From: an uncultured Bacilli bacterium
Lineage (GTDB): Bacteria > Bacillota_I > Bacilli_A > RF39 > UBA660
Direction of reading: 5' to 3'
Assembly (NCBI GenBank): GCA_944350445.1
Contig: CALVOW010000006.1
Location: forward strand, 1-63,705
DNA length: 63,705 bases
Both the position numbers and the translations under genes were made by a program. Under the pieces are notes generated by a model, which worked only from the letters and a program-made list of their open reading frames with translations, ran no database searches and had not been told where the DNA came from. This document shows, piece after piece, positions 41,756 through 46,869 of the stretch (within the stretch, counting starts at the first letter, position 1; every line of letters begins with the position of its first letter).

Positions 41756-42877
41756 TTAAAGAGAAATATTTTTCTCTTTCGGTTTTTTATTACATTTTAG
41801 TGAATAGACAAATTGTGAACATTTACATCTTTTTAAATAACCATTATATCTTTCTAAAATAATATTGCCTTCTTTTTTATAACGCTTACGGATTTTTTTC
41901 TTCATATTTTTACTAGGCAACATATAAACTTTTTTATTTTTAACTAAAAAACGATATCCTAAAAAAATAAAACCATTTCCTACTTTTGATATTTCCGTTT
42001 TTTTATTTAAAGTCAATTTTAAAGTACTTAATTCTTTTTTTATCTCATCAAGACAATATTTCAAATAATTAGGATTTTCATGAAATAAAATAAAATCATC
42101 CATATATCTAACATAATATTTTATTTGTAGCTTTTCTTTAATAAAGTGATCAAGAGAATTTAAATAAAAAATAGCTAAAATTTGACTTGTCATATTACCA
42201 ATTGGTAGACCTTTTCCTTTTTTATATCTTGGAATATTTTCAAGTTTTGTAATTAATTCGATCTTATCTTTAAAATTACGATTTGACCGTTTTATAAGTT
42301 CAATTTCCTTTTGAACTAATCGTTCAATTTCTTTGTTAACATAATCTTCGCTTGTTGAAGTTATAATATTTTCAATTATTTTTATAATATCTAAATCCCA
42401 AATAATTAATTTTAATTTTTTAAGTAAAATGTCATGATCAATATTATAAAAATATTTACTAATATCACATTTTAAAACATAAATATCATTAGTCTTTTTT
42501 TGCAGTTTTTGTAAATAATTCTTCACCAAATAAACCCCATGATCTAAGCCTCGACCAACACGAGTTGCTACATTCATATCTATTAATCGGGGTTCAATTA
42601 TTGGAAATAAAAGATATAAACTTACTACATGATTTATAATTTTATCAAATAAATTTTCACTCATAATAATTCTATATTTGGGATACTTAATCAAAAAGAT
42701 ATTATATTTAGTATGTTTATATGTTTTGTTTTCTAATAATTTATATATATGAATAAAATTAGAAAATTTGGAAAGTTCAAACTTAACTAATTTCTTCTTA
42801 TGCTTGGTTGCCATACATATTTTTTTATAAACTAAATTAATCTTATAATAATCAACAATATCTTCATATTTTATCAT
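41756..42877 (-). CDS. DGR reverse transcriptase
   Basis: KCDISKYFYNIDH, GLPIGNMTSQ, YVRYMDDF, FLGY; 373 aa with no maturase or endonuclease domain; adjacent TR/VR pair. Confidence 0.96.
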   Translation of the reverse strand: MIKYEDIVDYYKINLVYKKICMATKHKKKLVKFELSKFSNFIHIYKLLENKTYKHTKYNIFLIKYPKYRIIMSENLFDKIINHVVSLYLLFPIIEPRLIDMNVATRVGRGLDHGVYLVKNYLQKLQKKTNDIYVLKCDISKYFYNIDHDILLKKLKLIIWDLDIIKIIENIITSTSEDYVNKEIERLVQKEIELIKRSNRNFKDKIELITKLENIPRYKKGKGLPIGNMTSQILAIFYLNSLDHFIKEKLQIKYYVRYMDDFILFHENPNYLKYCLDEIKKELSTLKLTLNKKTEISKVGNGFIFLGYRFLVKNKKVYMLPSKNMKKKIRKRYKKEGNIILERYNGYLKRCKCSQFVYSLKCNKKPKEKNISL

Positions 42878-43223
42878 GAATATTATAACCTTTCATAATA
42901 GTAAATGCTATTTTTTTTAAATCTAATAAAATACTTCCTACTTTTGTTGATTGTTTATACGAAATATATTTTTTTAAAAAAGCTTGATGTATTAAATAAT
43001 TAATCATACTTAAATTGATTAAATATTCTTTTAAATATTTTTCTTTTATACGAAGAGTATCATTAATATTAAATGCAAATAAATTCTCAACTAATTTATA
43101 TAAACAATTTTCTAAATAATTTCTTAAAACCATATCTTTTTTGGGAAAATTAATTAACATTTTATAAATATAATCATTAGTCTGATAAGTTTTATTTAAA
43201 AGAATAAAATCAGAATTCATCAA
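42864..43223 (-). CDS. avd: DGR accessory variability determinant (Avd-like four-helix bundle)
   Basis: 119 aa, helical, NFPKKDMVLRN motif, overlaps the RT start. Confidence 0.8.
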   Translation of the reverse strand: MMNSDFILLNKTYQTNDYIYKMLINFPKKDMVLRNYLENCLYKLVENLFAFNINDTLRIKEKYLKEYLINLSMINYLIHQAFLKKYISYKQSTKVGSILLDLKKIAFTIMKGYNIHDKI

Positions 43224-44283: not shown

Positions 44284-44298
44284 AAATTAATTCTTTTT

Positions 44299-46869
44299 TT
44301 AAGCTAATTCTAATTCAAAAGGATTTTGGGTGGTTCCATCGCCTTTCGAAATTAGAACATCAGATCGAAGATTGATAACTGCGCGCACGCCGCGCGAGTT
44401 CGAGACGTAGCTCCATGGAGACAACACGCCCGTCGGATGGACGAAATACACGTAAGCAAGAGCATTCGCAGCACGGAAGTACGAAGGGGTCATAGTAAAG
44501 TAATAATTATTCGTTCGTAAATAATATTCTTCATTTTTTAAACCTTGTCTTCCTCCAGCTAACGCTACTTCGTCAGCTGTTATTAAAGCAATAGGATAAG
44601 TTAAATCACCATTGCCGCGGCTACTTGTCGTTGAAAATTTATCTACATCTCGACTACATTTTAAAGTTGCTGTTTTATTACTATCTTGATATAAGCGTTT
44701 ATAGGCTGAATACAATGTTGTTGGTACTAGACTATACCCATTTCCTGTATTACTACTTGCAAAACTTCGATCATTACAGAAAGTTCCATCTACTATATAA
44801 TTTGTTAATAAATTTCCTTCACTATCACTCTTACCAACTATATTAGTAGCATACCAACTATCTAAAGTTGCTTTGATATTACTACTATTATCATTCGTTA
44901 ATGTACTTTCTAAACTATTTGAAGAATAGGATATATACTGAGCTCTCACTTGTGTTTCGTTTATATAACTATTAACTTTTATCATGACTGGACAGCTTCC
45001 AGTTCCATTTGTTAATTTACAGGTATAAGGATAATCGGCAAATTGATCCTGCATTTCCGTAAATGTTCCACTAGTTATATTTCCGGTTATTTTAAATGTT
45101 TTTGATTCTTCATCGAATTCATAATCAGATCCAAAATAATACTCTGTTAAAGCTACTATATTGTCATAAGTTGTTTCACTACTTGTATGAAGTGAAAAAT
45201 CCTTTCCATACATATAGCCAACATAGGTTGGATCAGGGTATGTTGTATTATATTGATAAGTTCTATTATTGATACTTGTGGCATTTCCTGTTGCATCAGG
45301 AATCGTTCCATTATAAATCATCCGAATTGATCCATCTCCATTCATACGAATTATCTTCCAGTAAAAGCCTCCAAAGTAAACATTGTTATTCTCTACATCA
45401 CCTCGATAAATATAGGAAGTTCCATAGTCGTCTTCGACGGCATATAAACCTTGTTCACTTCTTAACGTACTTGCTATTTTATAAGTTATCCTATCTGCTA
45501 AAGTTATTCGTTGCAAACTTTCATCAGTTCCTAAGATTTTATAGATAGTTCCACAAGCACTATTTCCTATATTAGTTGCACCACATGTATAATAATTTAA
45601 ATAAGTATCACTTAACGTATCCGTTGTAATCGTTCCTGTTAGTTTAAAAGTTCCAGTTGTTGAATTAAATTCATACGAGTTGCCAAAATAATATTTATAA
45701 CCACTAGTTACTGTATAAGCATTCTCAACATTTTGAGTTAACTCTTCAACATAAGTATAACTTGGGGCCGTATCATCTAAATTTGGATAACCCTTATCAA
45801 CTATTTGGGTAATAGCTGTTTCGGTATTATCGGTTTGATGTTCGGATACTAAGATACAATCTCCTAGTTTGTTAAAACCATTATTTAAACAGTAATTGTT
45901 TCCTTTTACCTCGACTCGTTTTACTACTTCATGCGTCTCTACATCATTTTTTACTAATTTAACATTTATATCACTTACTCCATTAGCATCATTTTTAGGT
46001 ATAACATATACTTTAACTTCAACTGTTTTATTCGTTGCAAAGTCATACTCTAAACTTAAACTCTCAACTGGTGTTTCATCTTCTCCACCTTCTGAGTCTT
46101 TATAAGCAAATAAAACATCGGAGTTAGTTCCCGTTATTTCTAATTTCATATTATCAGTTGCTTGAAGGGAAATTCCCGCTTGATTAACATCTAGGTAATT
46201 ACTAATCTTCGCGATAAAATAAGCTTTATTATTTTCAACATAAGTTTCATCAGTTTCCAGAGCTAATGGCATATTCATACTATCTAAATTACCATCAACA
46301 TTAACTTTAACACTTACATAAGAATTATTCCATTCATCGATTGTATAATCTCCAGTTGTATTACTAATAACTGTATTTTCATCAATCCAAATTCTTAAGC
46401 TATAATTCTTAGTTATTTCTTCATTAGTTCCGGCTGGTATCGTATCAACCCAAATTCTTGTGTTATCAAAGCTTTTATAACGAATAGCATCAATTAAAAC
46501 ATCATCATCACTTGTTAAATAAACATTCACATCTTCGGGATTGATTCTTGTCTTACCTGCAATCTCATCACCATTAACAAGGCTTATTCCATAATAAATA
46601 TCTTTACTACTCGTGTTTTTTCCGACGATTTGAAAATTAAAGACATTATCATCACTTGCTAAAGCATCATTCTTTGACATAGGAACAGCATTTGTGATAT
46701 TTATCTGATTATTTTCGATATAATTCATATAAATATCTCCAGTTATAGCTACTTGGTTTCTTGTTCCACTTATTAAAGTATTATAGGCTGCATAGGTTAC
46801 TCCAAGCGTTACTATTAAAATTAAACTTACTATTAAACTAATACTTATTACTTTCTTTCTATCCTTCAT
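44299..46869 (-). CDS. DGR target: 856-aa secreted/surface protein, TasA-like N-domain, C-terminal VR (probable C-type lectin fold)
   Basis: Signal ..TLGVTYA; VR encodes PSYFRAANALAYVYFVHPTGVLSPWSYVSNSRGVRA near the C-terminus, ending in the GVR motif typical of CLec-type targets. Confidence 0.92.
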   Translation of the reverse strand: MKDRKKVISISLIVSLILIVTLGVTYAAYNTLISGTRNQVAITGDIYMNYIENNQINITNAVPMSKNDALASDDNVFNFQIVGKNTSSKDIYYGISLVNGDEIAGKTRINPEDVNVYLTSDDDVLIDAIRYKSFDNTRIWVDTIPAGTNEEITKNYSLRIWIDENTVISNTTGDYTIDEWNNSYVSVKVNVDGNLDSMNMPLALETDETYVENNKAYFIAKISNYLDVNQAGISLQATDNMKLEITGTNSDVLFAYKDSEGGEDETPVESLSLEYDFATNKTVEVKVYVIPKNDANGVSDINVKLVKNDVETHEVVKRVEVKGNNYCLNNGFNKLGDCILVSEHQTDNTETAITQIVDKGYPNLDDTAPSYTYVEELTQNVENAYTVTSGYKYYFGNSYEFNSTTGTFKLTGTITTDTLSDTYLNYYTCGATNIGNSACGTIYKILGTDESLQRITLADRITYKIASTLRSEQGLYAVEDDYGTSYIYRGDVENNNVYFGGFYWKIIRMNGDGSIRMIYNGTIPDATGNATSINNRTYQYNTTYPDPTYVGYMYGKDFSLHTSSETTYDNIVALTEYYFGSDYEFDEESKTFKITGNITSGTFTEMQDQFADYPYTCKLTNGTGSCPVMIKVNSYINETQVRAQYISYSSNSLESTLTNDNSSNIKATLDSWYATNIVGKSDSEGNLLTNYIVDGTFCNDRSFASSNTGNGYSLVPTTLYSAYKRLYQDSNKTATLKCSRDVDKFSTTSSRGNGDLTYPIALITADEVALAGGRQGLKNEEYYLRTNNYYFTMTPSYFRAANALAYVYFVHPTGVLSPWSYVSNSRGVRAVINLRSDVLISKGDGTTQNPFELELA
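44379..44487 (-). repeat. DGR variable repeat (VR)
   Basis: 91/109 identical to the TR; all 18 mismatches are at TR adenines; invariant GC-rich GGCGTGCGCGCAG at the 3' end (IMH-like). Confidence 0.96.

Follow-up and report, generated by a model that had tools for sequence, protein, structure and literature searches.

An MSL-type diversity-generating retroelement with one template repeat and several probable target genes in an uncultured chicken-gut Bacilli bacterium

We analysed a stretch of 63,705 nucleotides (hereafter the window) from an uncultured Bacilli bacterium of the chicken gut, represented by a metagenome-assembled genome (MAG; GCA_944350445.1) of 1.34 Mb in 46 contigs, 94% complete and with 26% GC. 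The window is contig C6 of this genome (CALVOW010000006.1); below, C-numbers denote contigs of the host genome (G000), and G002 and G020 are related genomes. Positions 41756 to 46869 carry a diversity-generating retroelement (DGR) with genes for a reverse transcriptase (RT), Avd and the accessory protein MSL, a template repeat (TR), and a target gene whose 3' part contains the variable region (VR). The VR ends in a boundary resembling an initiation of mutagenic homing (IMH) site. The features of the cassette are as follows.

41756-42877, minus strand: DGR reverse transcriptase, 373 aa; Pfam RVT_1, E = 4.5e-17
42864-43223, minus strand: avd, 119 aa, isoelectric point (pI) 9.5; Pfam bAvd, E = 1.2e-10
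43210-43653, minus strand: MSL accessory gene, a 147-aa open reading frame (ORF) between TR and avd; MutS domain I plus a helical hairpin
43826-43926, minus strand: structured spacer (Sp-like) RNA, predicted with covariation, immediately 3' of the TR
43928-44039, minus strand: TR, 112 nt, 32 As, 12 AAY codons, 52% GC
44172-44205, no strand assigned: hairpin 2, a 15-bp palindromic stem
44258-44283, minus strand: hairpin 1, an 11-bp stem with a 4-nt loop, then a T-rich run
44299-46869, minus strand: adjacent target gene, 856 aa; its C-terminal domain of ~200 aa bears the VR
44358-44392, minus strand: IMH-like 3' boundary; GC core 44379-44392 plus the differing flank 44358-44378
44379-44490, minus strand: VR, encoding target residues 794-831 of 856

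On the minus strand the order reads target gene with VR, two hairpins, TR, spacer RNA, MSL, avd and RT. An earlier note, made by a model from the letters alone, had proposed the layout target(VR)-hairpins-TR-MSL-avd-RT, and every element was found in its place. All four cassette ORFs lie on the minus strand with open frames.

The TR and VR align without gaps over 112 nt at 83% identity (repeat finder). Eighteen of the 19 mismatches fall at TR adenines (binomial P = 2e-9 for 18 or more out of 19, given that 28.6% of the TR is A), and the sole non-adenine mismatch is a G>C change in the third base of the repeat, at its 5' boundary. Within the 109-nt core (VR 44379-44487), which contains 31 As, all 18 mismatches are at TR adenines. 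Our recount agrees throughout with the figures claimed before (109 bp ungapped, 18 mismatches all at A, 31 As), and so does the codon count: the TR has 37 codons, 12 of them AAC or AAT (AAY), and none can become a stop by changing its As. The repeat could encode ~10^19 DNA variants and 10^17.8 protein variants. The GC content rises from 26% in the genome and 32% in the target gene to 52% in the TR and 60% in the VR. The 14-nt GC-rich core is the same in VR and TR and the next 21 nt differ; judged by sequence, the VR has an IMH and the TR an IMH* that departs from it.

The RT carries the motifs IGNMTSQ at residue 226 and YMDD at residue 258; RTs of the DGR clade are characterised by [LIV]GxxxSQ and YxDD. 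Its best solved relative is 8ub7_A, a 328-aa chain named 'Reverse transcriptase' (E = 8.6e-23, motif aligned), and we take the entries 8ub7-8ube to be complexes of the Bordetella phage bRT. Judged by motifs and nearest solved structure, the protein belongs to the DGR-type RTs. Avd scores 42.3 bits against Pfam bAvd (cut-off 40) and 34.4 bits against the NCBIfam model DivGenRetAVD, which is under the cut-off of 80 for that model.

The ORF between TR and avd matches Pfam MutS_I (E = 2.3e-7, 31.4 bits, cut-off 20.6) and has a pI of 7.7. Its true start is probably the ATG at 43602, as in its relatives, which would give a protein of 130 aa. A profile of 16 orthologues matches MSH6 and MutS in the PDB (E = 2.5e-4). 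The AlphaFold2 model (predicted local distance difference test, pLDDT, 94.4) gave 45 Foldseek matches at E <= 0.001 in the PDB; among those listed, all are MutS, MSH3 or MSH6 chains, superposed on MutS domain I with E down to 1.8e-5 and a root-mean-square deviation (rmsd) of 1.1-3.5 Å over 67-83 residues. The family keeps G-x-F-Y, and in an alignment to MSH6 the Glu position of the MSH6 motif GKFYELY is Val or Thr. HRDC has no match in any cassette ORF (Pfam). The accessory ORF is the MSL gene as defined by Wu et al. 2018 for Architecture D. The host genome encodes a canonical MutS, so MSL acts in a cell with a mismatch sensor; we infer that it probably acts on the mismatched heteroduplex of cDNA and target. 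Taken together, the adenine-specific mismatches, the VR at the 3' end of the target, the GC-rich IMH core, the bAvd protein, the DGR-type RT and the MutS-like gene uphold the identification of the element as a DGR.

Immediately 3' of the TR, the candidate spacer RNA is closed by pairing of UUCC (43923-43926) with GGAA (43826-43829) about 100 nt apart, which encloses two covarying hairpins at 43866-43899 and 43841-43860. In an RNAalifold analysis of 19 related loci, 14 of the 19 pairs show compensatory double changes, compared with 7.7 +/- 1.4 in shuffled alignments (0 of 500 reached the observed number). Likewise, 95.2% of cells are paired, against 80.0 +/- 1.2% after shuffling (0 of 500) and 30-51% when the pairing partners are slid. 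The stretch is conserved in relatives whose RT is just 44-54% identical, and a conserved segment, GAUUGGAAACAAG, lies at ~43820-43832. An Rfam scan of 41000-47600 gave no family at E <= 1. In the Bordetella element, the available part of a preprint (bioRxiv 10.1101/2023.10.23.563531) describes a structured spacer that is essential, supplies the primer and pairs with the 3' end of the TR, and it reports related spacer elements predicted downstream of the TR in 207 DGRs. Structured spacers being already known there, the one described here is this lineage's version and not a new kind of RNA.

The two hairpins that follow the VR were considered as a DGR cruciform, and this candidate was rejected: three remote targets (see below) have unrelated downstream sequence, and the hairpins are terminator-like. 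Hairpin 1 is most likely the terminator of the target gene and no conserved DGR element, because the sequences downstream of the three remote targets differ.

The target is an acidic protein (pI 4.5) with a single hydrophobic segment at residues ~7-25, after a basic N-terminus, which may be an export signal or a membrane anchor; this segment and the acidic body would place the protein at the cell surface. It has no match in Pfam or NCBIfam at E <= 0.01, nor among PDB sequences at E <= 1, and only clusters named 'hypothetical protein' in the ESM Atlas. The N-terminal 600 aa gave no NCBIfam match at E <= 10, and for the N-terminal 70 aa the sole row at that threshold is a chance-level lactococcin_972. 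We found 261 homologues at E <= 0.001, and the 90% cluster of the protein has 6 members. The C-terminal 256 aa match 4059 representative clusters (E <= 0.001), in which this module is often C-terminal and sometimes repeated, up to 11 copies per protein. A model of these 256 aa (31-sequence alignment, pLDDT 89.2, predicted TM-score 0.83) places the VR on strands E190-199, E204-210, E215-221 and E230-232.

Comparison of this model with known structures bears on the earlier suggestion that the domain would show a C-type lectin fold in an AlphaFold model. The best match in an exhaustive VIA-align search is 9qa6_A residues 85-303 (Z 6.0, 140 residues, rmsd 4.6 Å), the Thomasclavelia ramosa IgA peptidase (IgAse), whose N-terminal domain, according to the available text of PMC12237041, is a C-type lectin-like domain, enlarged and related to Lcl. 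The next matches are the C-terminal domain of Legionella Lcl (8q4e, Z 3.2) and Treponema TvpA (2y3c, Z 3.0), followed by many canonical C-type lectin domains at Z 2.2-2.7. Seven of the 31 aligned homologues show weak matches to DUF6273 (best E = 3.4e-5), and the target itself has none to Pfam DUF6273 (PF19789) at E <= 0.01; by sequence, the link to DUF6273 appears to be a distant relationship only. DUF6273 has been reported as a C-type lectin-like DGR target in phages (PMC10743442, in the part available). The suggested fold is thus moderately supported by the IgAse match and not by Foldseek, which returned nothing at E <= 0.001; a C-type lectin-like fold is likely from the model, though the scores do not prove it.

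The sequence upstream of the paralogous target genes is conserved in two versions (C6 46870-46980; C24, C28, C32, C17, C11, C7). Version one has the promoter-like pair TTGAATAA / TATATTAT, and version two a conserved palindromic stretch, ACTAGTACGCGAGTACT, followed by TTTTAGGTGTTTTTT.

Variation within the target family was analysed in an alignment of 105 homologues of 835-870 aa, drawn from 120 listed of the 261 (15 were dropped for length). The 25 closest homologues among those listed are 88.8-95.5% identical to the target outside the VR, yet share only 17-44% of the residues at the 18 A-codons (those with A in position 1 or 2). At the remaining 19 VR codons, identity is 100% for 13 of these 25 homologues and 89% or higher for 17. 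In the 31 closest homologues, column entropy averages 2.16 bits over the A-codons, against 0.51 over the remaining VR codons and 0.23 over all other positions of the protein (Mann-Whitney P = 1e-5 and 2e-15, values that overstate independence since the sequences are related), and A-codons account for 14 of the 20 most variable positions of the whole protein. The claim that the element was recently active is thereby supported indirectly, and the DGR is probably active.

The stretch is present in 20 metagenome runs from 11 studies; 10 are labelled chicken gut metagenome and the other 10 are labelled 'gut metagenome' or 'metagenome' or carry no label. Four chicken-gut runs from four studies, all available as assembled unitigs, were compared with the cassette. 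Cassette pieces, those over the TR included, show 0-2 differences among the contigs listed in three of the four runs, and the fourth run holds a more divergent strain. In all four, among the contigs listed, the cassette unitig ends exactly at 44339/44340, 40 nt 3' of the VR. Past this point the summed depth increases several-fold, with paralogues piling up over the target gene, and the position probably marks where sequence shared by paralogues begins.

It could be argued that the DGR looks intact but is now silent, its VR diversity being a fossil kept by selection. VR polymorphism cannot be read in the unitigs, and decay is visible elsewhere in the genome, namely a second DGR with a split RT on contig C19, three paralogues that have lost the IMH, and a relic beside the RT (all described below). 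Against this stand four full-length open frames with catalytic motifs, a TR that keeps its 12 AAY codons and no stop-capable codon, and a spacer RNA that retains every conserved pairing. Moreover, the low sharing of A-codon residues among homologues so alike outside the VR points to turnover on a short evolutionary scale. We therefore regard present silence as clearly unlikely.

The target family comprises ~12 full or partial paralogues plus N-terminal fragments, roughly 2-2.5% of the genome DNA. Their VRs compare with the TR as follows.

C6 (adjacent target): 19 mismatches to the TR, 18 at A; 14-nt GC core and 21-nt flank intact
C24:157-2727 (C24a): 15 mismatches, 15 at A; IMH intact
C24:20096- (C24b): 15 mismatches, 12 at A; IMH intact
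C9:48127-: 20 mismatches, 17 at A; one change in the IMH core
C31: 22 mismatches, 13 at A; GC core lost
C16: 33 mismatches, 17 at A; GC core lost
C17: 36 mismatches, 17 at A; GC core lost
C7 (two copies), C27, C28 and C34: 50-77 mismatches; TR homology absent

The 21-nt flank after the core is common to the adjacent VR and the three remote VRs of C24a, C24b and C9. Among these four 856-aa targets, each VR has fewer differences from the TR (15-20) than from any of the other VRs (20-25), and 74-95% of the differences between VRs lie at TR-A positions (21 of 22 for C6 and C24a). Such a pattern favours independent rewriting of each VR from the TR over the copying of one paralogue from another. A search of the genome, which is 94% complete, recovered just one full TR with its spacer and a single intact RT of this lineage. 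From this sequence evidence, a single TR most likely serves four genes, the adjacent target plus C24a, C24b and C9. The reading of the earlier note, a DGR diversifying the adjacent protein, therefore stands, and its one-gene scope does not, there being probably four live targets. The copies on C31, C16 and C17 look like decaying former targets that are gaining non-adenine changes.

Alternatively, only the adjacent gene is or was a target, and the other VRs arose by duplication and gene conversion among paralogues. With ~12 paralogues, many of them at contig ends, duplication and recombination are clearly frequent, and C24b and C9 each carry three non-adenine mismatches. However, conversion from another VR would copy its substitutions, and C24a, 92% identical to the adjacent target overall, has few VR substitutions in common with it; the TR is a closer match to every remote VR than the other VRs are, and differences between VRs lie mostly at TR-A. 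DGRs with non-adjacent targets are also documented, in 45 of 372 cases and with a maximum of seven such targets, in the passages available of a DGR survey (PMC5758913). Gene conversion as the source of the remote VRs is distinctly improbable.

The cassette sits between ffh (SRP54 match, E = 8e-74) and gpr (Peptidase_A25 match, E = 6e-94), and the contig ends lie at least 16.8 kb away from it on either side. Of 16 ORFs around the cassette (31.5 to 57.3 kb) that were scanned with Pfam, 13 match housekeeping-type families, including Ffh, the germination protease, SufS-like, S20 (rpsT), MiaB-like, GGDEF, ScpB, MurB and MurG-like proteins; three have no match, and none matches a phage or integrase family. 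This agrees with the claim that ffh and gpr flank the element and that phage and integrase genes are absent nearby. In the gap between the target start and gpr, a perfect 21-nt inverted repeat (47052-47072 / 47467-47487, arms 394 nt apart) brackets a 68-aa ORF at 47353-47559.

Relatives of the RT occur in 22 of 41 related genomes, a count that includes the host; within its genus, 18 of the 22 further genomes have one. Species-representative prokaryote genomes hold 312 RT-related loci, with identities up to 68%; by their titles, nearly all belong to MAGs of uncultured gut Bacilli, 'Tenericutes' or Firmicutes. Firmicutes bacterium CAG:822 and Clostridium sp. CAG:451 have RTs 50-53% identical to this one. 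By comparison, IMG/VR holds 14 RT-related loci (<= 37% identity). The claimed cellular nature of the element accords with these counts as well as with its housekeeping neighbours. That it belongs to a phage or mobile element with a receptor-binding protein as its target is hardly credible, even with distant RT relatives in 87 phage records (<= 35% identity) and a prophage gene on contig C2 with a matching VR, given the flanking genes, the overwhelmingly bacterial MAG contigs among the relatives, and a C2 prophage that, over the region inspected, lacks an RT, avd and TR of its own.

Among the best 80 genome loci, Avd is present in 71, MSL in 36 (28 upstream and eight downstream of the RT), and an A-biased TR/VR pair in cis in 42. 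In the two closest cassettes, those of G002 and G020 (67-68% RT identity), MSL-avd-RT is present but a target next to it is missing, and no TR/VR pair was present in the loci compared. In G002, a TR-like stretch (L014, G002:C23, ~7980-8060) matches elsewhere over ~40 nt only and ends in the same GC core; a sequence that looks tRNA-like by eye lies just upstream of it. In G020 (L013, G020:C57) the position of the TR looks deleted. A literature search found no paper joining diversity-generating retroelements and RF39.

On this evidence we read the locus as an intact cellular DGR of the MSL type, in which one TR has several target genes, with a probability of roughly 0.85. Several points weigh against this reading. 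The homologues compared are a mix of alleles and paralogues, none more than 95.5% identical outside the VR, and the unitigs, broken at 44339/44340, leave the VR without a resolved sequence from which current activity could be judged. The three non-adenine mismatches each of C24b and C9 suggest that these two may be rewritten less recently or less often. The remote targets are on separate contigs, and assembly chimeras among near-identical paralogues are possible. As to the target, hydropathy is the ground for proposing export, the protein lacks a Pfam match, the domain model found no Foldseek match at E <= 0.001 in the PDB or BFVD, and a VIA-align Z of 6 is of a size that, by the tool's own warning, can be common.

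A relic of a second target/TR unit lies immediately past the stop codon of the RT gene, with the following parts.

41468-41740, minus strand: the relic as a whole
~41680-41740, minus strand: stretch resembling the target-family promoter and ribosome-binding site (23 nt, 91% identical to the sequence upstream of C24a, E = 1e-4)
41554-41661, minus strand: pseudo-VR with 13 upstream target-like codons, ~25 nt past the promoter stretch
41468-41529, minus strand: first 40-50 nt of the TR 3' flank (89% identical over 62 nt), after the GC core

The frame of the pseudo-VR aligns with target residues 781-816 (tblastn E = 1e-7), but it contains in-frame TAG and TAA codons, a scrambled 3' third and a 2-nt length difference. 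The conserved spacer core is absent from the relic, and no VR in the genome matches its 3' half. The TR-like copy at 41468-41622 was considered as a working second TR and rejected on these grounds: the stops, the length difference, the missing spacer core and the lack of a VR. A VR-type 5' side joined to a TR-type 3' side is what recombination between VR and TR would leave, and we take the stretch to be what is left of a second target/TR unit, perhaps a VR x TR recombinant that arose after an internal deletion.

A second DGR with the same gene order is found on contig C19 (L015:4757-6974), where its target runs off the contig end. VR2 (6898-6974) and TR2 (6591-6667) differ by eight mismatches, all at TR adenines, and an MSL-like ORF and an avd-like ORF are followed by an RT split into ORFs of 176 and 117 aa, which may reflect either a pseudogene or an assembly error.

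The prophage on contig C2 (~C2:33-64 kb) has genes for a CI-like repressor, replisome organiser, SSB, NinB, terminase, portal, head, tape measure and tail fibre. In its early region, between the SSB and NinB genes, a gene at C2:38344-38820 (L096:5345-5821) encodes a 158-aa protein without an N-terminal hydrophobic segment apparent by eye, scoring 20.2 bits against DUF6273, under the cut-off of 23.5. Its last ~54 residues are a VR. The first 101 nt of this VR have 11 differences from the TR, all at adenines, and the next 11 nt (the IMH core) have five; in all it differs from the TR at 16 positions and from the host VRs at 23-26, which suggests that it was written from this TR or a twin. The whole protein has no match in 50,697 phage records, and for its first 100 residues neither those records nor 25 related genomes contain a relative. 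In the 25 genomes just the last ~54 residues match, and what they match are host target genes.

It is conceivable, if rather doubtful, that the TR of the C6 element also wrote the VR of this signal-less, C-type lectin-like prophage protein, that MSL is a dedicated factor which protects or directs the heteroduplex against host MutS, and that the relic is a snapshot of TR birth from, or death into, deleted target genes. If true, a phage gene would be plugged into the diversification machinery of its host, and the reach of a DGR would extend beyond the host's own surface proteins.

Among known systems, the element is closest to the Architecture D DGRs of the survey cited above. In its available passages (PMC5758913), 16 of 372 DGRs have MSL, which is invariably accompanied by avd, does not co-occur with HRDC and defines this architecture; one MSL protein belongs to the Legionella pneumophila DGR. 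The components are the same, namely a target with a 3' VR, TR, MSL, Avd and RT without HRDC, and the same passages give a pI of 7.2 +/- 1.7 for MSL (7.7 here) and 9.5 +/- 0.7 for Avd (9.5 here). Both are cellular rather than phage-borne and have non-adjacent targets. Unlike the Legionella target LdtA (DUF1566/CLec2), the target described here is DUF6273-like, with what is likely an enlarged C-type lectin-like domain; the host is an uncultured Bacilli MAG from the chicken gut with a small genome (1.34 Mb, 26% GC).

The element shares with that of Bordetella phage BPP-1 (mtd, avd, TR, Sp, brt) the adenine-specific differences, an AAY-rich TR, a GC-rich IMH core, Avd and the RT motifs. The order is avd-TR-RT in BPP-1, whereas it is TR-MSL-avd-RT here; the present element is also chromosomal, has a MutS-like gene and probably several targets in trans, and its post-VR hairpins are not conserved among targets. 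The DGR of Treponema denticola is likewise a single cellular element with scattered, paralogous targets (TvpA plus seven remote ones in the available text of PMC5758913), exported C-type lectin proteins as those here probably are, but it has an HRDC accessory (Architecture C) and FGE-type targets in place of MSL and DUF6273-like targets. In gut-phage DUF6273 targets (tentaclins; Faecalibacterium prophages), the VR falls in the beta-hairpin region of a C-type lectin-like domain, as is likely here, according to the part available of PMC10743442. Those are receptor-binding proteins of phage DGRs, whereas the targets here are cellular proteins of ~856 aa with a putative N-terminal anchor or signal.

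The anatomy of the locus, the adenine pattern of each VR, the A-codon variation across homologues and the folds obtained for MSL and the target domain are the observations from which we infer transcription, priming, homing, action in trans, export and a role of MSL. If the element works as that of the Bordetella phage does, transcription of the TR and the structured spacer would be followed by reverse transcription of the TR by the RT-Avd complex, from a primer supplied by the spacer. The predicted priming nucleotide is an adenosine in or beside the conserved GAUUGGAAACAAG at ~43820-43832. Misincorporation opposite the 32 template adenines during cDNA synthesis would yield a mutated cDNA that replaces the VR of the target, with the IMH setting the 3' boundary, and MSL may shield the cDNA:target heteroduplex from host MutS. 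As a result, 18 codons (12 of them AAY) would be randomised in the beta-hairpin region of a C-type lectin-like domain, borne by an exported or membrane-anchored 856-aa protein.

The element is a typical, if well-developed, multi-target cellular DGR. Its class was described in 2018; the element adds a member, with a target repertoire bigger than the earlier note had seen, and leaves the current understanding of DGRs unchanged. It provides a clean and fully intact representative of the MSL class, which has been little studied, from a gut bacterium with a reduced genome. One genome presents an unusually complete, graded series of four apparently live targets, three paralogues without IMH and five untargeted ones, together with a prophage-borne mini-target, a relic unit and a second DGR with a split RT, and this series is a natural data set for the gain and loss of DGR targets. 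Furthermore, MSL and the covariation-defined spacer RNA offer handles on how such elements prime cDNA synthesis and cope with mismatch repair.

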